Shown: positions 26,658-61,818 of the stretch, in pieces
How positions within the stretch are numbered: position 1 is the first letter of the stretch
Layout: every line of letters starts with the position of its first letter
IMG/VR virus record: IMGVR_UViG_3300033802_000281
Length of the DNA: 64,000 bases
Origin: a virus
Reading direction: 5' to 3' (one strand)
Program-made: the position numbers and the translations under genes
Notes under the pieces: generated by a model
Database searches by the model: none
What the model saw: the letters and a program-made list of their open reading frames with translations, nothing else
Told to the model about the DNA's origin: nothing

Positions 26658-27023
26658 ACCCGCTATCGTAGTCGCCAAATAAGCTTGTTGCCTTGAATCT
26701 AGACTATTCCACTTAGCCCCTAGTTCATCCATTACATCTCCGAAATTTCTAAACTGACCGCGAGCGTCCATTAGCTGGATGCCTACTTCGGCCAATGCCT
26801 TTGCAACTTGGTTGACTTGTGTACCATCTTCTTCATCAAAACCATATTCTTTTAGATTTTGTACGCGAGCCAAAATTGACTTGATGGAGTTACCTATGGT
26901 TGCTGCATTCTCACGAGTGCGAGACGATAAGACGGCAATCCATGAAGCTACTTTTTCAAATTCAATATTGAGAGCACCAGCCGTACCACCAACACGTTGA
27001 AAGGCAACGCCAATTTCATCTGC
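26658..27023 (-). CDS. Tape measure protein, exon 2 (122 codons)
   Basis: ADEIGVAFQRVG...IGNSIKSILAR...LATTIAG, TP901-type tape measure core. Confidence 0.9.
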
Positions 27024-28431
27024 CAATCTGTTACTTTCACCTTATAAGTTCTTTACCTTATAAGGCTACTGACCATACGCCATATATCATTTACAATATA
27101 CGGCGTATGGCGACCAAGTATTTCTACTTGGTTCCTCGTTTTCATAAATGCTATATAAAGTAATAGCCTTTGGATTATAGACGAGGATCGGACTGTATCT
27201 TAATCCTTCATATGAAGGACTGTTGGCGTGGATTATATGTCACCATATAATCACTCAGTCTCTACGAAACATCACCAATTAAATATAATCGACCATAATC
27301 ATAAGATTCAATTTTGTTTTTGTACTTTACTAAATTATTATCTATATCAAAAACAATCCATGAATTGTTTTCTAAAATACCACAAGCATAATCAATTATT
27401 GACTTAATCTTTTCTGGTGCAGGCACTCTGTCTCTTTTGCTTATTATTCTTATTTCTTTCCATCCTCTTCGATATAAGGAATATCTCCGCCTCTTTTCTT
27501 TTTCATCAAATTCTTCCTTTGAAATTTGACCTATTTTTACAGCTAAGTCATGTCCACTTCCATCAAATTCTATATATATTTTATTTTCTGGAAAGGCAAT
27601 ATCTAATACAGAATTACCAACAGGATAATTTAAAACCCCACCAACAATATTATGTATATGTTTTTGTTGTCTAGAACATGGATGTTTACCAAATTTATAT
27701 TTTGTTTTTAAGATTCTACTTACTCTACACTTCCAACATCGTTTTCCTGATTTAAAATCAGCCAAAGAAATAAAAGATTTATTTCCGCATTCACAAATAT
27801 ATTCAAGTGGTTTATGATATCCTTCATATGTTTCAAATAACGGTACACAACCACCATCAATAAAAACTTTTCTTACTGTATCAATATCAAATTTAAATTG
27901 ATCGGATAATTTTTTTAAACCGCAATCTTTACATCTTTGACCTTTTTTAAAGTTAGAAAAAGTGGTCTTAGCATGCTTCCCACATTGACAAATATATTCT
28001 AAAACATCATTAGCACCAGTGTAAATAGATAAAAGCTTACATCCATGTTCTTCGAAATATTTAGCAACATATTCTTGATCATACTTTTCCAATCCGCTAC
28101 AAATTTTGCAACCATTTTTCCTAGTTTTAAATTTCCCAAAGATCGTTTCTCTTAAATTTCCACATTTACAAATGTATTTTAGTTTAGTTTTAGAATTTTT
28201 ATATTCATCTAATAAAATACAACCTTTGCTTCTAAAAAAATTATCAACATATTCATGTGTGAATTTAATATTATTTTTCCCCATATACCAACTCCGTTCT
28301 ATTTTTTTATATTAGTGGTCGATTATATATTTGATGATGTTCCACGGAATTACCTGTCCCCAAGCTTCTTCCGTACAAGCCAACTTTTCACCAGTAACTT
28401 ACGCTACTGGGCGGCAAAATATCCAAAATTT
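27024..28431 (-). ncRNA. Group I intron 1 of tape measure gene (1408 nt)
   Basis: 5' exon ends GGU; P1 CGGU/GCCG; P3 GTTGGC/GCCAAC; P7 GACTG/CAGTC in CGTAGAGACTG...AAGATACAGTCC; ends GAAAGTAACAGATTG; removal restores the reading frame. Confidence 0.92.
27262..28284 (-). CDS. Intron-encoded EDxHD/Vsr-like homing endonuclease with three zinc-ribbon repeats
   Basis: YICxCG...CxxC three times; LDIAFPENKIYIEFDGSGHD...RRGWKEIRI; stop codon overlaps the intron core. Confidence 0.82.
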   Translation of the reverse strand: MGKNNIKFTHEYVDNFFRSKGCILLDEYKNSKTKLKYICKCGNLRETIFGKFKTRKNGCKICSGLEKYDQEYVAKYFEEHGCKLLSIYTGANDVLEYICQCGKHAKTTFSNFKKGQRCKDCGLKKLSDQFKFDIDTVRKVFIDGGCVPLFETYEGYHKPLEYICECGNKSFISLADFKSGKRCWKCRVSRILKTKYKFGKHPCSRQQKHIHNIVGGVLNYPVGNSVLDIAFPENKIYIEFDGSGHDLAVKIGQISKEEFDEKEKRRRYSLYRRGWKEIRIISKRDRVPAPEKIKSIIDYACGILENNSWIVFDIDNNLVKYKNKIESYDYGRLYLIGDVS

Positions 28432-29946
28432 ACCGGTCGCCGTGGCGTCACCAAGGTACGCGAACACGTCCGATGCTCGTTCAATATCTACACCCATCGA
28501 GTTAACAGTCGCCGTTAAAATTTCAGCCGCATCTTTAAATTCCAAGCTACTAATCTTCGCATATTGCGTGGTAATTTGAAGACGTTTCATTACTTCATCT
28601 TGAGTTAAACCTTGCCGATAAAATTCTACTGACGCTTCGGCAATTTCTCGTGTAGTAACACTCATTTCTTTGGCAAGATTATTATATTCTTCAGCTAGAC
28701 CACGGACTTCTTCTTGATTCTTTCCTAAAACAATCGCTATTTCATTGAGTTTCGAATCCAGTTCAGTTGTATATTGCAATCCATATTGAAAGAACCGCAT
28801 AGTCTGCATGATTACTGTACCAGAAAATAACCACACAGGGAATTTTATAAATGCAGTCCTTATTGCTTCACTAAATCCTAAAATATAAGATGTTGCTGTA
28901 CTCGCATTTGCCTTAATTTGTTTTAGTTCATAGTTAAAATCTTGAAATGCGCGTTTGTATTCCGGTGTAAATGCTATTGATTGCAACCTATTTTCAAGTT
29001 CATTCAACCCTTTTGTTACATTTGGATCGGCTCCAAATCTTCTACGCAAATCAGCAATTTCTAGTTCAGCTTTTTTTCTTTTATTCAGAAAATCTTCATA
29101 ATGTCTTGTTTCACGCTGTTCTCTATCATGTAGAGCCTTTAGCCACCATCGTTCGTATTCTTGCTCTTGTTTTAAGCGTCTTTGATATTGCCTCTCTAGC
29201 GCCTGTTGTTCTTTGAGATCGCGATCACGTAAAGCTTTTTGCCACCATTGTTCATACTGTTGTACTTCTTTTGCCCGCTGTTCTAACTCTCTTAATTGTG
29301 CATTAACCCTTGAAAAATCAGCTTTACTAGACCGTTCATTAAGTTTTGCAAAGCTATTTGCCAAATCTGCAACTTTTTCATTTGTAGAACCAAATACTTT
29401 TTCAATTTGTGTAAAGCGGTTTGTAAAATCGCGTACAAAATTTTCGTATTTCTTTTTTGCTTCGTTTAATTTTCCTTGATCTAAAACTTCTTCGATTCTA
29501 GTTGTAATTATCGATCCGTCTTCTTGAGGACGATATGTTGTAGTAGTGTATTTAAATTGATCTCCTCTGGTTTCTCTTATCTCACTTACTTTTCCAGAAC
29601 CAGAGCGTATTGTTGTTTTTCTACTTAATTCATCTATATTTTTTGATAATTCTTGTACAGATTTAGCTTCTTTTTGTAGTTGCTTTTCATGTTCTCTTGA
29701 GGCTTGTGTAGCTTGTTCTGTTAATTGACTTAATTTCTTAAAATTCTCATTTCCGATTTGATTAATTGAACGTAAAGAATCCTCAATTGATTTTAATGTT
29801 TCATTATCAATATTGATTTTTATATTTAATTTATTTATTTTTTCTTCTATTCGTTTGATTGCTGCATTAATATCACCAGTTTCTTTATCTTCATCGATAA
29901 AGAAACTCAGTATAATACCTAAATCTTTATCATTTTCGTTCGCCAC
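28432..29946 (-). CDS. Tape measure protein, exon 1 (505 codons; spliced product 2073 aa)
   Basis: FYRQGL...AAEILTATVNSM...DVFAYLGDATATG joins in frame to exon 2. Confidence 0.9.
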
Positions 29947-29969
29947 AATCCATCACCCCTTTTTCCAGA

Positions 29970-42025: not shown

Positions 42026-43912
42026 TTATAAGCGAATTTCTAATGATGAAACGTAACTTGGAATTGTATTTAAATCAATTTTTTCTCGTTCCTTATTTAC
42101 AATTGTACTCCTACGTAATTGTTGCAAATGCCATGCAAGCATCGCTACGCAATATGCCCGGTCGTCGTTCATTTTAGTTTCTTTATCAGGCGGAAGTGCA
42201 TAACGATAGTTACCATTACCACTATCAAAGCGATATATATTTACGATTTCTTCTTTTGCTAGATCTATATTTTTAAGCGCTAATTCTTCATCCCATGATA
42301 ATTTATATATTTTTTGCTCAGATTGTACATTTTTCTTTTTCTTATCATCGTCTTCATATTCAATTTCTTTATCTTCAAAAAGTGTAATATGACCTTTCAT
42401 ATCATACTCTGCTGTAAATGAAATAAGATCGAGATTCATCATCTCGACCAATGCATCAAACAATTGAGTTCTGTATTTTTTAGGATTTACAAGCTTTATT
42501 TTATCAATTGCATTTGGAAATTTATTCACATAGTCAACAGATTCAATTTTGTCGATTAAACCACGATGATTTTGACCTTTATTATCTTTCCAGTCTTCCA
42601 TAAAGTAATCCGCAATATTTACTCCGGCACCACCTGCACCGCTATCAATAAGTAAAGCACTTATATTTTCATAATCAGCAAATCCTAAACCATTATAATC
42701 AAGAAGCATTTGCTTAACTGCTGCTACTTGTTCAGGTGTACGCATGGGGGTCTTTTTCTTTTTGGCAACGTCAACAAATGACACACCATTACATATACGC
42801 ATTTTATAACCAACTTGCTCATCATAATATATTTCTCCAACCATACATACAGAATTGTCATAAGATCGAGCAGGGTCATATGCAATAGCAAATAATCCAC
42901 CATGATTGTTATAGAGAATCGGAGGACGAACTTCACTATTTCTAATAATGGTTGCACGTTTTATAGCTTGATTATCTCCACCTTCTGTAGAGAATTTATT
43001 GTAATATTCGCGTAACGCTTTTTCTTTATTTTTCTTCATTGCATCATCAATAACTTCTTGACGAAGAAGCGGAACAGGATATGGTTTGCCGTGTACAGTT
43101 GGATTTAATACGATTTCGGCATTAATATCTGCTACAAAATATCTTTTATCCCCAATAATCATTTTCTTTGAATAATCTTTATATACACGATAGAAATATG
43201 TATCTGTGCTAGATGCAGATGATGCAAAAATTGCTTGGTTTGGTATTTGTTTAGGTAATGTATCTAGATCAATATCTCCACCTAATTTAAAGTTGCTATC
43301 TTGTGTAATAAAAGGCATTGATGTTTCAAATAACTCATCAGGTGCAAATCCAGCTTCATCATAGAAATTTAGATTCGAACGTTTGGATCTGTTGTTATCA
43401 AAAGCACCATTTAGTGAATTTACAACAGACCCATTGTATAATTTATATTGAAATGAAGCTGGATTATGCGTAAAACCGTCAGTATTCGCCACAGATTTAA
43501 CCGTTTCGTTATAAAACACATCGGTTAATCCAGTAAAAGATGATATTTCACGTTTAGCTATTTTTTCTATTTTCATAAATGTTTCTTGTGCTTGGCTACC
43601 TACGCCAGATAATATGTAAATTTGCATATTAGGAAATAGATTTGATTTTGACATGATAAAAGGTGCACCCATCGTAGTTTTTCCAGACCCACGAGATTGA
43701 CACCATACATTAAAAGGGGTTACCCAACTTTTCATAAACACATAAGCCTGATTGTCAAGAAAGTCTATACCATAGAACCTACGACAATAATTAACGGGGT
43801 GTCTACGCTAGTTAACCTAGCGGCCCCACTGGATAATCTGCGCTAATCTCAAATACCCTTCTAGTTTTCTTTGAGATAACTCTTTTTTAGTTTTTTTTAA
43901 ATGAATATCCAT
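42026..43912 (-). CDS. Terminase large subunit (YonF-like), interrupted by two in-frame TAG codons at 43808-43819
   Basis: Walker A SRGSGKT, Walker B FYDEAG, nuclease AYDPA and DDRAY; RBS GAGGTG and ATG 43912 in frame with ORF 42026..43741 across the stops. Confidence 0.85.
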
Positions 43913-43944
43913 GTGGGAAAACATCACCTCTTTCTGTAATAGCG

Positions 43945-48726: not shown

Positions 48727-51318
48727 TTAAAATTGTCCACGTTTTTTCCTATATTCACGCTCTTTTATGGATTTATACTGTTTACGAACGTCTTTTTTAC
48801 AATCATCACAATACTTTTGGTTCTTTCCTTTAACTAAAGTTCTTTTTCCGCAGTTCATACAAACAACTTGATTTTTATAATGTATATCCAAATTGTTCTT
48901 TAAATTTTCAACAATAATATCACCAAAACATTCCCAAAGAGTTGTTTTATAACTTGATCTCTTATTTTTATATAAGTATTTAATAATTACGTCTGTAACA
49001 AAATAAAGATCTCTGTTACCTACAATTTCATTTTTGATATTCTGATAAAGAAATAATATATTATTATGTTTTTCAATTGGATTTATTAAAAATCTTCGTT
49101 TTAAATCTAATTTTTCATATCTATCAATTATTTCATAATCAATTTCTACATTGTTATTTTTCATAAGCATTTTATAATCAAATTTCCCCAAAGTTTTTAA
49201 ATTAAATCTAATTTGATAATTAGGAATTATTTTTTCCAGCCTATTTACTACACTATTATTGATTGGTTCAACACTTTTTTTCTCATAATCTTTTGCATAA
49301 ATAAAGAAATAAGGGACTTTTTTGTTAATTAATTTATTTATTCTTTTATTGATTTTCTTTGGTCGTATAGGCTTATAAAGCGTTTTTGCATAATCAATGA
49401 CAAAATTATTCTCCATGCAAAGCCACTTTATCACATCAAGATCAATATCATCACCATTCCAAATTTTTGTGATATTATTGCTTATAACTCCTATATTGCC
49501 TCCAGTATATGCAGCTATTAATCCATGATAAATTGCTTCGTTTGAAATCTGTTCTGCTCCGGCTTTTGCCATTTCATATTGTAAAGGCACAATGTCTTTC
49601 ATATTTCTTTCTGCTACTTCAATTAGAGTTGGATCTGATACTACAAGTGCTTTGTCTCCATCTTGGTCAAACATAAGAATTTTACTAATAGGGTCATGAC
49701 AACTTGTATATAATCCCTTTGTGATAAACCATTTTTTAGTTTCATTATTGATTTTATTAACCCTAATTGCATGTTCTCGATACAAATGCGGACTTCTTAA
49801 GCAATCGAGTTTATAATAACTTTTAAATAATTCACAAGACACTTCACCATTATTTAATAATCCGATAGGATTTTTGTTTTCTAAAAATAAGAATTCACAA
49901 AAAGCATAAAGATCGGGGATGATAAAAGTATATTTGCCGTGTATGTCAAGTTTACCCGCTCTTGCTTCTTTTATTAAGCTTTTCTTTACATCTTTTAAAA
50001 TTTGCTTACTATACGTATCATGTAAGAGTTCAGGATATATTTCTAAAGCTTTTTGTAAATAATTCTTATTTTTATTTGACGGTTTTACTCCTAAAATTTT
50101 TAGCATCGTTCCAATATCTTTTGTTAAATTAATTATATTTTGTTTTGTAATGTAGCTTATCTTTTCTAATTCTTGATCACTAAAATCAATAAGTGTTTGA
50201 AGCATTTGATAATTAATCTTCGCATAATCAATTTGATCTTCTTCTTCATTACATATTCCAGCTTGACAATTAAATTGAACAAAGTAATTTTTATATTCAT
50301 CCCAAGAAGAGTAATATTTCCACATTTTAAATTGGCTTTTAGTAAAAATAATTTCAATCTCGTCTTCTAGGATATCATATTCTTTCCCATAAATGTCTTT
50401 TATAACTCCTATACTTTTGTCCTTTAATTCTTTTCTTTTTTCTTTGATAAACCTATCAAAAGGGAAAGGTACAAGTAACCCTTTAATCCAAGGCATCCTA
50501 ATCATAAAGCTTTTCTTAGAGAGGGATGGTAGAATCATTCCACAACCATCCGTGTGATTAATAAGAATATCCATATCTTTTCTAGTTATTTCATATGTTT
50601 TTTCATCAATAAAATCGACTAAACTACGAATAGTCGTTTCCATATCATCGACAATAATAGTTTTATGAATCGGAAAGTTAACCCATTGATCTGTTGCACT
50701 ATTACAAAGTGCTAAATAGGCAAGAAATTTATTTATATTTACTCCGCCTAATTCATTAATTTTTTCAGTTGTTAATCCACACATTAAAGATTGTTGATGC
50801 TTTTTATATACAGATTCCTTAATAAAAACTGTTTTTTTCGTTCGGATTTGCCCTGCCGAAGCAGTAAAACAAATATATTTTTCACCATTATGTATAAATC
50901 CATGTAAAATAATATCTTTTAATACATCAAAGAAGTAAGTCTGTATTACAAATAGATCTTCAGTTAATTCTCCTTCTTTAATACCTAATGTACGTGTTAA
51001 AGTTGATTCAAAAAGAGAAATAATATTTTTTTTATTCAAAGATTTAGGATCTAGTTTTCTAATTCCTTTATGTTTTTTAAATATATTGTACAAAACATTT
51101 TTAAGTGTTTTGATTTTTTTATTAAGTAAACGATATTCACTTTTCAAATCATTTAATTCTGTAATATTATCACATTTTACAATCTTAGATTTAATAACAT
51201 TCTTTTCGATATGTATTTTTGATAATTGTTCGTGTATTTCTTTTTCTTCATCGGTATAAAAAGCATCGGTCGAAATACTGTAAAGATGAACTTGTTTGTC
51301 TAGGCTGATTTTTATCAC
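48727..51318 (-). CDS. yonO: YonO-type single-subunit (RdRP-related) phage DNA-dependent RNA polymerase
   Basis: TASAGQIR, HTDGCGMI, RSPHL, catalytic FDQDGD; upstream of late operon as in SPbeta. Confidence 0.9.
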   Translation of the reverse strand: MIKISLDKQVHLYSISTDAFYTDEEKEIHEQLSKIHIEKNVIKSKIVKCDNITELNDLKSEYRLLNKKIKTLKNVLYNIFKKHKGIRKLDPKSLNKKNIISLFESTLTRTLGIKEGELTEDLFVIQTYFFDVLKDIILHGFIHNGEKYICFTASAGQIRTKKTVFIKESVYKKHQQSLMCGLTTEKINELGGVNINKFLAYLALCNSATDQWVNFPIHKTIIVDDMETTIRSLVDFIDEKTYEITRKDMDILINHTDGCGMILPSLSKKSFMIRMPWIKGLLVPFPFDRFIKEKRKELKDKSIGVIKDIYGKEYDILEDEIEIIFTKSQFKMWKYYSSWDEYKNYFVQFNCQAGICNEEEDQIDYAKINYQMLQTLIDFSDQELEKISYITKQNIINLTKDIGTMLKILGVKPSNKNKNYLQKALEIYPELLHDTYSKQILKDVKKSLIKEARAGKLDIHGKYTFIIPDLYAFCEFLFLENKNPIGLLNNGEVSCELFKSYYKLDCLRSPHLYREHAIRVNKINNETKKWFITKGLYTSCHDPISKILMFDQDGDKALVVSDPTLIEVAERNMKDIVPLQYEMAKAGAEQISNEAIYHGLIAAYTGGNIGVISNNITKIWNGDDIDLDVIKWLCMENNFVIDYAKTLYKPIRPKKINKRINKLINKKVPYFFIYAKDYEKKSVEPINNSVVNRLEKIIPNYQIRFNLKTLGKFDYKMLMKNNNVEIDYEIIDRYEKLDLKRRFLINPIEKHNNILFLYQNIKNEIVGNRDLYFVTDVIIKYLYKNKRSSYKTTLWECFGDIIVENLKNNLDIHYKNQVVCMNCGKRTLVKGKNQKYCDDCKKDVRKQYKSIKEREYRKKRGQF

Positions 51319-51331
51319 TTCCTCACATACC

Positions 51332-51526
51332 TTACAAATCGTAAATATCTCGTTTATATTTTTTTCTTATTCTCTTTGTTTTTATAAATTCATCCTGAAA
51401 CCATTTATCTACGATTTCCTGAGTATCCTCGCAAAAGTCTTGTGCTTCATCATCTAATAATCCATCATAATAAACATCTTGCCATGTCATATGCTTTCCA
51501 TTCCTTCGTTTTTGATCCATAAACAT
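51332..51526 (-). CDS. Small hypothetical protein
   Basis: 64-aa ORF with AAGGGG RBS ahead of yonO. Confidence 0.5.
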   Translation of the reverse strand: MFMDQKRRNGKHMTWQDVYYDGLLDDEAQDFCEDTQEIVDKWFQDEFIKTKRIRKKYKRDIYDL

Positions 51527-51664: not shown

Positions 51665-51696
51665 AAAATAAAAATAGTAGGCGGAGGCTGAAATTA

Positions 51697-52758
51697 ATGA
51701 CAACTACCTATGCTGTTCTTCTTCCTAATAATCAAAATGTTTTCAAAGATATTCAATCATTTTTAGATGAATATCCAAATAAAAAAACAAAAATTGAATA
51801 CAGAAGAGATATCGAGCAATTCTTTAGATTTCTGCATAACATTAATCTTCAGGAAATTACAACTTATCACATTTACAACGGCCCTAATCACGAGCCTCTA
51901 CAACGGAAACATGTTATATTGTATCGAAATCATTTGTTGACTGCACCGGGAGAAAGAGGAAAAATAAATTCCGCTGGCACTATAAACCGAAAAATTGGAA
52001 CAATTAAAAATTTGTATAAATACCTTGAAAAAGAGTATAACTATAAGATCAATCATTCTATTTTTAATATTGATGCACTTGTCTATGAACCTAAAAAATT
52101 TGACATTATTAAAAAAGAAGATGTTACAAAATTAGCTGATCTCGCGTTGAATCTTAAGTATGGACATCAGCTAAATGTGTTCATTTACCTTGCAACTGTA
52201 ACCAGTATTCGAGTATCAGCGTTGTTGAAGATTAATAAAACTGATATAGTCAAAGATTACTATACTGATTTTTATCTTGTAAAAACAGTGGATAAACGAA
52301 ATCAACTAAGGCAATGTCCGATTGAAAAATGGTTATATGAAATGATCGAAAATCTAATAAAGGAACATGGTAAAGATCAAATTTTCCCTGATTTGACCGT
52401 TGACTATGTTAATAAATCCATAAAAAAACTCAAAAAAGAAGCTAAATTGCCTGATCATCTCCGTATTGTCACACATTCTCTTCGTAAAGTTGCACCGTCG
52501 TATGAAATGAAAACAGTCGGAAATGTAAGGAATGGAATGGTTCAGACTGGCCATAGATCGGTTCAAACATTTCTTGATACTTACGTTGAAAAAGAAGTTG
52601 ACTATAATCAGTTAGCTGGAATTCGAATGTTTAGAACAATTGATGAAAGTGTTTTTGAAATAGTAGATAAAACAGATATTCTTCAACTTCTTAAAACAAT
52701 TAATCCTGTCGCATATGAGCAACTAGCGCTCGCTATTAAAGAGTATATTGAAAATTAA
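51697..52758 (+). CDS. Tyrosine recombinase/integrase-family protein
   Basis: TSIRVSAL, HSLRK, GHRSVQTFLDTY; SAM-like N-terminus. Confidence 0.85.
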   Translation: MTTTYAVLLPNNQNVFKDIQSFLDEYPNKKTKIEYRRDIEQFFRFLHNINLQEITTYHIYNGPNHEPLQRKHVILYRNHLLTAPGERGKINSAGTINRKIGTIKNLYKYLEKEYNYKINHSIFNIDALVYEPKKFDIIKKEDVTKLADLALNLKYGHQLNVFIYLATVTSIRVSALLKINKTDIVKDYYTDFYLVKTVDKRNQLRQCPIEKWLYEMIENLIKEHGKDQIFPDLTVDYVNKSIKKLKKEAKLPDHLRIVTHSLRKVAPSYEMKTVGNVRNGMVQTGHRSVQTFLDTYVEKEVDYNQLAGIRMFRTIDESVFEIVDKTDILQLLKTINPVAYEQLALAIKEYIEN

Positions 52759-61533: not shown

Positions 61534-61719
61534 GTGGAAGTAAAGCCCGGAATGATGGTATGGTCGGAAGTACTCGGAGCAAACGTTGAAGTGCTCCGGG
61601 TATATAAAAGCACAGCAACCGTCCGCGTATGGGGGCGCGGGCTCGCGGAAGGTAAACTTATGACCTTTCGGGGTCAACGACTCGACAGTTTACACCCCAA
61701 ACGGGAACAGCAGGGCTAG
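61534..61719 (+). CDS. Small early hypothetical protein
   Basis: GGAGGGG RBS, GTG start; stop TAG lies inside the ribozyme 5' strand. Confidence 0.65.
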   Translation: MEVKPGMMVWSEVLGANVEVLRVYKSTATVRVWGRGLAEGKLMTFRGQRLDSLHPKREQQG

Positions 61720-61779
61720 GCCCTACCCCGTGAAAGCCGGGTTCGGCGGAGAAACCCCGCCGCGGCGCTCAACCTGCTG
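61708..61779 (+). ncRNA. Twister-sister self-cleaving ribozyme (three-way-junction type)
   Basis: P1 CAGCAGG/CCTGCTG, internal loop GCTAG/GCTCAA, P2 GCC/GGC, hairpin CCCG-TGAAAGC-CGGG, hairpin CGGCGG/CCGCCG; matches the TS ribozyme pattern as I recall it; predicted cut 61770/61771. Confidence 0.85.
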
Positions 61780-61818
61780 GATGATAGGGCAGGAAATTCA
61801 ATCGAAAGGATGATTTAC

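Follow-up and report, generated by a model that had tools for sequence, protein, structure and literature searches.

How can a temperate phage make its terminase large subunit when the gene for it carries two in-frame stop codons directly after codon 31? This question is raised by a stretch of 64,000 nucleotides from the IMG/VR virus record IMGVR_UViG_3300033802_000281, which is called here, at its whole length, the window. The terminase gene (terL) lies on the minus strand, in a frame running from ATG 43912 to a stop at 42026, and the only in-frame stops within it are TAG 43819–43817 and TAG 43810–43808. Around the break, the minus strand from 43828 to 43796 reads TGG GGC CGC TAG GTT AAC TAG CGT AGA CAC CCC. 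An original prediction, made from the letters of the window, had proposed that ribosomes hop from CGC to CGT over this insert; its account of the stretch, and of a frame that opens at ATG 43912 behind a ribosome binding site, was confirmed when the sequence was read again. Judging from the sequence comparisons reported below, we think that the break is probably a short programmed translational bypass, or stop-hop, in the terL of an SPbeta-like temperate phage.

The gene falls into two coding segments, all features being on the minus strand. A Shine-Dalgarno sequence (43923–43930), with an 8-nt match to the anti-Shine-Dalgarno complement, is located 10 nt upstream of ATG 43912. The first segment (43820–43912) comprises codons 1–31, keeps all the family-invariant residues, and ends in a conserved QWGR motif, whose last codon is the proposed take-off codon CGC (Arg31, 43822–43820). 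The proposed untranslated gap of 12 nt, TAG GTT AAC TAG (43808–43819), begins with a TAG directly 3' of the take-off codon and is missing in the nearest relatives. It is followed by the proposed landing codon CGT (43805–43807), after which decoding would restart at AGA 43804–43802. The second segment (42026–43804) holds codons 32–624 of the spliced reading and the stop, with the LDxQ motif, Walker A (SRGSGKT), the ATPase domain, and the nuclease domain.

Several lines of comparison identify the product. It matches the PHROG 2 terminase large subunit with an E value of 1.8e-21. An AlphaFold model of the nearest intact relative was compared with solved TerL structures, and it matches the ATPase domain of P74-26 (Z 22.6), T4 gp17 (Z ~20), HK97 and Sf6 TerL, and the nuclease domain of G20c (Z 17.4); residues 31–305 of the model align to the entire ATPase domain of P74-26 TerL. 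By these models, the gene is that of a terminase large subunit, with an ATPase domain containing Walker A followed by an RNase H-like nuclease domain. Searches of the terminase against Pfam and against sequence profiles from PDB gave no match, nor did megablast against cultured phages, and tblastn against a phage collection retrieved relatives only at ~24% identity, in Bacillus phages of the Basilisk/Slash type.

The insert can be delimited exactly by comparison with intact genes. Full-length homologues (600–630 aa) read QWGR-x-x-P[V/I] at this place, the nearest ones WGRRNPV or WGRRHPV, and the spacing from G30 to P34 is invariant among them; the QWGRxNPV motif that the original prediction named, and recovered by removing 15 nt, is therefore a real one. 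Removing exactly 15 nt restores both this spacing and the 624-aa length of P0121, the closest intact relative, which falls in the same 90% cluster and shows 91% identity across the 569 aa common to both. In P0121 and three other near relatives, TGG GGN is followed by an Arg codon (CGT or AGA) and by AGA, with nothing in between. Alignment of the DNA with the nearest uninterrupted relatives (L111, L112, L010, and L002) gives a clean 15-nt insertion before an ancestral CGT AGA, which is present in L111, L112, and L002. Because the near relatives do not have those bases, the window must have gained CGC TAG GTT AAC TAG ahead of the ancestral CGT AGA. The identical insert is found in L001, a second metagenome contig of the lineage (JGI sample 3300033750), which makes an assembly error unlikely. 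An engineered stop linker, suggested by the HpaI site between two ambers, was dropped as an explanation because the insert occurs in environmental metagenome contigs. An intein or intron was also discarded, as 15 nt is far too short and the inteins of this terminase family sit elsewhere, at the Walker A motif and at two further sites.

The break has a compact geometry. Folding bore out the predicted CGCTAG-GTTAA-CTAGCG hairpin (43806–43822, minus strand), in which CGCTAG (43822–43817) pairs perfectly over 6 bp with CTAGCG (43811–43806) across a 5-nt loop. The take-off codon and the first stop make up its 5' arm, and its 3' arm reaches two bases into the landing codon. An outer 4-bp helix (43796–43827, minus strand) encloses the hairpin, formed by GGGG 43827–43824 of the Trp-Gly codons and CCCC 43799–43796 of the His-Pro codons. 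Rfam gave no match at the terL break site. No frame of the 12-nt gap contains a CGN Arg codon, so that CGT is the first CGN triplet after take-off. By standard wobble rules, tRNA-Arg(ICG) reads both CGC and CGT. Moreover, a +1 or −1 shift at the first TAG of the window runs into stops in either frame, in the +1 frame after 17 codons; thus, only an in-frame solution could work here.

The course of events that we propose is the following. Ribosomes would start at ATG 43912, translate 31 codons, and pause there, the P site being occupied by CGC (Arg31) and the A site by UAG, which is decoded slowly. In a fraction of them, the peptidyl-tRNA-Arg would release CGC while the mRNA slides by 15 nt, probably helped by the small hairpin, which would set take-off and landing codons side by side. 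The tRNA would then pair anew with CGU, which is the first cognate codon that it meets, and AGA would be the next codon read. The gap also has an AGGT, 7 nt ahead of the landing codon, which could serve as an internal Shine-Dalgarno-like element. The product would be a 624-aa TerL colinear with that of uninterrupted relatives. The remaining ribosomes would terminate after 31 residues, so that the insert might also lower or gate the output of TerL.

Stop-containing inserts recur across the terminase family. Relatives were fetched at 110 loci, which correspond to ~85 distinct sequences, and the whole gene was scanned for frame changes and stops. Thirteen of the ~85 distinct sequences are interrupted, always at codons 31–50 except for one interruption at codon 185, and none is found in the other ~550 codons, apart from intein-sized inserts at three sites. 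Such clustered placing would not be expected from random decay. Substitutions and deletions are absent among the interruptions, all of which are small inserts whose removal restores the length of the homologues, and they take the form of a sense codon, a stop (with 0–1 nt or a few more codons), and a second codon. Nine independent events have a second codon that is the same as the first or a synonym of it: CTT TAA CTA in L084; CAG TGA CAA, CTT TGA TGA AAG CTT, and CTG TGA G CTA in L096; CTT TGA A CTA in L017; GAT-T-GAC in L013; GAG-T-GAA in L040; CGA-T-AGA in L008; and CGC...CGT in the window. Matched flanking codons are thus present in nine of ~16 events against ~5% expected per event, which by a rough estimate has a chance probability of ~1e-7. 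A Clostridium cuniculi prophage (L096) deserves mention, as it carries three stop-containing inserts at terL codons ~41, 50, and 185 in an otherwise open frame. All three are flanked by matched Leu or Gln codons, and the third, CTT TGA TGA AAG CTT, would require a displacement of 12 nt. A tree built on the columns downstream of the insert sites needs at least 11 state changes between interrupted and intact genes.

The commonest type of insert consists of CGN TAG and one further base (A, C, or T), located directly after Arg31, the same codon as in the window. This 4-nt insert is found at terL codon 31 in at least eight lineages (L008/L009/L039, L011/L083, L076, L078, L079/L099/L100, L089, L113–L116, L124, and L132), which include the isolate genome of Paenibacillus pini JCM 16418 and a 5.6-Mb NCBI assembly. 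It would be crossed either by a 4-nt hop or by a +1 shift without re-pairing. The base after TAG is A, C, or T but never G, as re-pairing by an inosine anticodon would have it; this bias is not significant (~0.1 by chance) and was set aside.

Selection on the interrupted genes provides a further kind of evidence. In the clades that share the 4-nt insert (L076/L089, L079/L100, and L078/L124/L132), synonymous divergence is considerable (pS 0.3–0.8), and over the 24 codons from the break to the internal Met the pN/pS ratio is only 0–0.05. Those 24 codons belong to the +1 frame, where the loci inspected have no start between the upstream stop and the break. For codons 13–31 the ratio is 0–0.7, with ~0.1 in the more diverged pairs. 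Since both flanking segments are under purifying selection, genes of the 4-nt type are, by this evolutionary evidence, translated across the break. The N-terminal segment of the window has a pN/pS of 0.16–0.27, compared with 0.15–0.24 in uninterrupted pairs, so selection on it is not relaxed. Some ungapped pN/pS rows for the rest of the gene were invalid because of indels and were ignored.

The interruptions have a visible effect on annotation. Gene callers report the 4-nt type as a 31-aa open reading frame (ORF) plus a shortened terminase. Among the best 120 protein clusters, 32 start at the internal Met, and all seven of those checked at the DNA level are interrupted. Other clusters (P0028–P0032, P0064, and P0088–P0091) are annotated from after Walker A, with ~540–545 aa, and among them are the "terminase" entries from NCBI for Paenibacillus peoriae, P. 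pini, and P. odorifer; their starts are probably annotation artefacts caused by the same interruptions, the DNA level having been read for P. pini alone. Gene callers shorten about one quarter of these terminases at an internal Met, which matters since terL is a standard phage marker gene.

Several observations weigh against a programmed hop at the break of the window. The original prediction had proposed looking for conservation of the insert and its hairpin in aligned homologous terminases, and this conservation was not found. The 15-nt insert is confined to one young lineage, made up of the window, L001, and one near-identical variant, while its sister sequences are intact. Exact scans of IMG/VR and of JGI metagenomes, collections that may lack the records of the window itself, gave no other copy of the insert, and a search for it as a repeated mini-element gave none either in the window or in 266 loci; a degenerate pattern of the site had at least 119 matches in metagenomes, and all were chance matches among the matches listed. 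The insert may also be too young for visible decay. The hairpin is no stronger than those of shuffled sequence (folding z of −1.3 and −0.4 for stretches of 41–71 nt) and, as these values are unexceptional, folding energy alone does not make it significant. In the tree, interruptions stand mostly on tip branches, which would also fit recurrent, short-lived, mildly deleterious inserts. The 15-nt displacement exceeds the 4–12 nt of the relatives and the 10 nt of the Streptomyces phage phiHau3, which is discussed below, and an AGC triplet 2 nt before the landing codon is a possible out-of-frame decoy, if the 4-nt variants land on AGC. Moreover, the synthetic stop-hops that Weiss et al. made in E. 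coli in 1987 are said to have been inefficient, at ~1%. On balance, the predicted jump from CGC to CGT is favored by the bypass geometry, the matched codons, the recurrence in the family, and the phiHau3 precedent, and it is weakened by the lack of conservation of the 15-nt insert. The insert is nevertheless present in L001 too, and the short product of the window variant has been recorded from five contigs, the longest of 148 kb, in assemblies of JGI and Logan.

The same facts feed the strongest of the rival explanations, in which a recent palindromic insertion killed the full-length TerL and left a packaging-defective or helper-reliant prophage that has yet to decay. The youth of the single lineage, its intact sister sequences, and the position of most interrupted genes at the tips of the tree all agree with such a lesion. 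In addition, the phage is temperate, with an integrase at 51667–52755, so that a dead terminase could persist by vertical inheritance. However, a random insert would be unlikely to combine a hot-spot codon, a stop after Arg, a landing codon read by the same tRNA, a decoy-free gap, and a hairpin that brings the two codons together. Elsewhere the 624-codon frame is open, as are the neighboring window genes examined, the N-terminal segment has no relaxed selection, and the spread of the variant over the five contigs mentioned above also speaks against a dead gene. We therefore regard an inactivating lesion as unlikely, while giving it a real share of the probability. Far less probable, in our opinion, is the internal restart that the original prediction listed as an alternative, in which a functional terminase would arise by initiation or re-initiation at GTG 43741 or ATG 43735 (43735–43743, minus strand) and the first 54 codons would be dispensable. 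Gene callers do choose these starts, with a product of 569–571 aa, and the family as a whole keeps an in-frame Met here. Nevertheless, neither GTG 43741 nor ATG 43735 is preceded by a Shine-Dalgarno sequence, the stop lies 70–80 nt upstream, and both starts are downstream of the conserved LDxQ motif. According to the structural model, a product starting at Met55 would lose residues 31–55, which form part of the canonical TerL ATPase fold and hold the invariant G43, D48, and Q50 and the nearly invariant L47 of LDxQ, ~23 residues before the Walker A lysine. This spacing matches that of what we take to be the adenine-binding Gln of T4 gp17. In the interrupted clades, moreover, the segments before the internal Met are under strong purifying selection, with the second in a different frame from the first.

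Double amber readthrough, also listed in the original prediction, would have both TAGs read, e.g., by a phage-encoded amber-suppressor tRNA, to give a TerL with five extra residues. Both stops being TAG is in its favor. Yet there is no tRNA gene within the window, two successive events would multiply two low efficiencies, and five extra residues would break the invariant G30–P34 spacing, which in the model is a turn between helices 1 and 2. TAG also ends seven of the 74 open frames of at least 100 codons in the window, and four of these seven are long frames on the minus strand, within the array of structural genes. For all these reasons, we hold readthrough to be very improbable. Genome-wide recoding of TAG was rejected on the same count of TAG-ended frames and because reading TAG as sense adds little open frame; the genetic code of the window phage is standard. 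Pyrrolysine was considered as well, and nothing in its favor was seen, although no search aimed at it was made. The last rival is a switch at the DNA level, by which replication slippage would delete the hairpin in a subpopulation and restore the gene, the insert being a reversible off-switch. The hairpin begins and ends with CG, and slippage between these repeats could remove exactly 15 nt, but the 4-nt and 6–7-nt variants of the family have no such repeats and are nevertheless maintained under selection. We give this switch hardly any credence.

If, as we prefer to think, the break is crossed by a programmed hop, its purpose could be read in three ways. The insert might gate or lower TerL synthesis in a temperate phage; it might, by analogy with the gap of T4, shield the site from a sequence-specific nuclease; or it might belong to a set of tolerated, slightly harmful indels that survive only through rescue by hopping. 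Because the interruptions are concentrated at the tips of the tree, the nuclease shield and the tolerated indel fit better than gating. Extending the argument to the whole family, it is quite possible, and we propose it tentatively from the sequences compared, that stop-hops are a repeatedly evolved and selectable device in the terL of temperate phages, in which inserts of a stop and a matched codon within the first 50 codons are skipped, either as a gate holding the DNA-cutting terminase back for late, high-level expression or as a nuclease shield.

The surroundings of the gene show that intervening elements are common in this family and in this phage. Inteins or large inserts occur in the terL of the family after the Gly-Lys of Walker A (query residue 73/74), at residues 171/172, and at residues 252/254; they are carried by P0016, P0021, P0097, and P0119 and by L059, L062, L064, L091, L101, L100, L106, and L109, some with LAGLIDADG. 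The terL of this family is thus often targeted by intervening elements of more than one kind. The window itself covers the structural region of an SPbeta-like temperate phage, with YonG, YonJ, YonD, and YomG domains, a YonO-like RNA polymerase, and an integrase. An 879-aa protein at 48730–51366 (minus strand) has a Pfam RdRP match (E 1.3e-11), which fits a single-subunit RNA polymerase of the YonO type, as in SPbeta-like phages. In the tape-measure protein, the PhageMin_Tail domain is split within 26658–29952 (minus strand): profile positions 2–91 end the ORF at 28402–29952, positions 93–201 start the ORF at 26658–27041, and the ~1.3 kb between the two halves holds a 349-aa ORF. Rfam at its gathering threshold found no intron in the split tape-measure region. 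A twister-sister ribozyme (Rfam RF02681) is located at 61708–61781 (plus strand), with 49.8 bits against a gathering score of 34. Given the split tape-measure gene and the ribozyme, we consider the genome of the window phage rich in selfish elements.

To our knowledge, natural bypassing has long rested on very few cases, namely T4 gene 60, yeast mitochondrial byps, and the phiHau3 candidate, and we know of short stop-hops only from synthetic constructs. If the hop is real, the window would present a natural hop that passes two stop codons in frame and with the help of a hairpin, and one terminase family of uncultured Firmicute phages would offer graded natural hops of 4, 6, 7, 12, and 15 nt, spread over five or six sites, some with hairpins and some without, in which the rules of take-off, scanning, and landing would be directly testable. 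Synthetic stop-hops in E. coli were described by Weiss, Dunn, Atkins and Gesteland (1987) and reviewed in PMC5009743, a recoding review of 2016 in which no natural in-frame stop-hop was known. The breaks of L084 (CTT TAA CTA) and L096 (CAG TGA CAA) share the layout of those constructs, a codon, a stop, and a synonymous codon, whereas the constructs are engineered and of low efficiency and the gap of the window is longer, with two stops and a hairpin. The 4-nt variants also resemble the +1 frameshift of prfB (RF2), as they consist of a sense codon, a stop, and one base with a G-rich, Shine-Dalgarno-like run (the Trp-Gly codons) just upstream. Unlike in prfB, however, the P-site tRNA of these variants cannot re-pair after a +1 slip, and a +1 shift would add a residue at the invariant spacing.

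T4 gene 60 shares more with the window. In both, take-off and landing codons are matched, UAG lies directly after the take-off codon, and the stop is within a take-off stem-loop. In both, one polypeptide comes (in the window, putatively) from two open segments of a phage gene that is essential and that lies in a genome with many selfish elements. On the other hand, the T4 gap has 50 nt, compared with 12 nt in the window, the T4 gene encodes a topoisomerase subunit and not a terminase, and T4 depends on a defined nascent-peptide signal. The T4 gap, moreover, lies in a MobA homing-endonuclease cassette, whereas no endonuclease gene adjoins the site of the window, where terL is flanked by a YonG-like gene upstream and by a gene of 526 aa downstream.

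Among published cases, the closest is the terminase of phiHau3, a candidate for bypassing that is also present in prophage StrepC.1 and in a S. catenulae prophage (Smith et al. 2013; Antonov et al. 2023, PMC10732093). When its TTA was changed to a stop, the gap was bypassed in E. coli, and the junction peptide was detected by mass spectrometry (PMC10732093). We checked the phiHau3 sequence (JX182369), in which KGWG is followed directly by GGC, a 7-nt gap opening with the rare TTA, and GGT. The gene is the same, and the gap after KGWG lies one codon upstream of the QWGR site of the window, at the same Trp-Gly motif, both sites preceding x-[N/D]-P. In both cases the gap is short and opens with a slowly decoded codon, take-off and landing codons differ at the wobble base only (GGC/GGT there, CGC/CGT in the window), and removal of the gap restores colinearity with relatives. 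Both also have an inner hairpin over the gap and an outer GGGG/CCCC helix, as found when the window and L119 were folded side by side. The pause in phiHau3, however, is due to a rare sense UUA tied to the bldA tRNA of Streptomyces, whereas the window has a true stop UAG and a second stop; the phiHau3-type gaps of 7–10 nt shift the frame, whereas the 15-nt displacement of the window is in frame. The host phyla differ as well, and tblastn from the window terminase against the phage collection did not retrieve phiHau3. Interruption is also more frequent here, with up to about one quarter of the window family compared with three of 100 terminases in the study of PMC10732093. The family-wide context of terL inserts was not found in the papers that were searched. 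All in all, the features of the phiHau3 type, i.e., a gap at Trp-Gly, matched codons, and a hairpin, are present in the window. Candidate bypassing in the terL of phiHau3 was known before, and what the sequences compared here would add to it is an in-frame 15-nt variant with a true stop and the context of related inserts throughout a terminase family.

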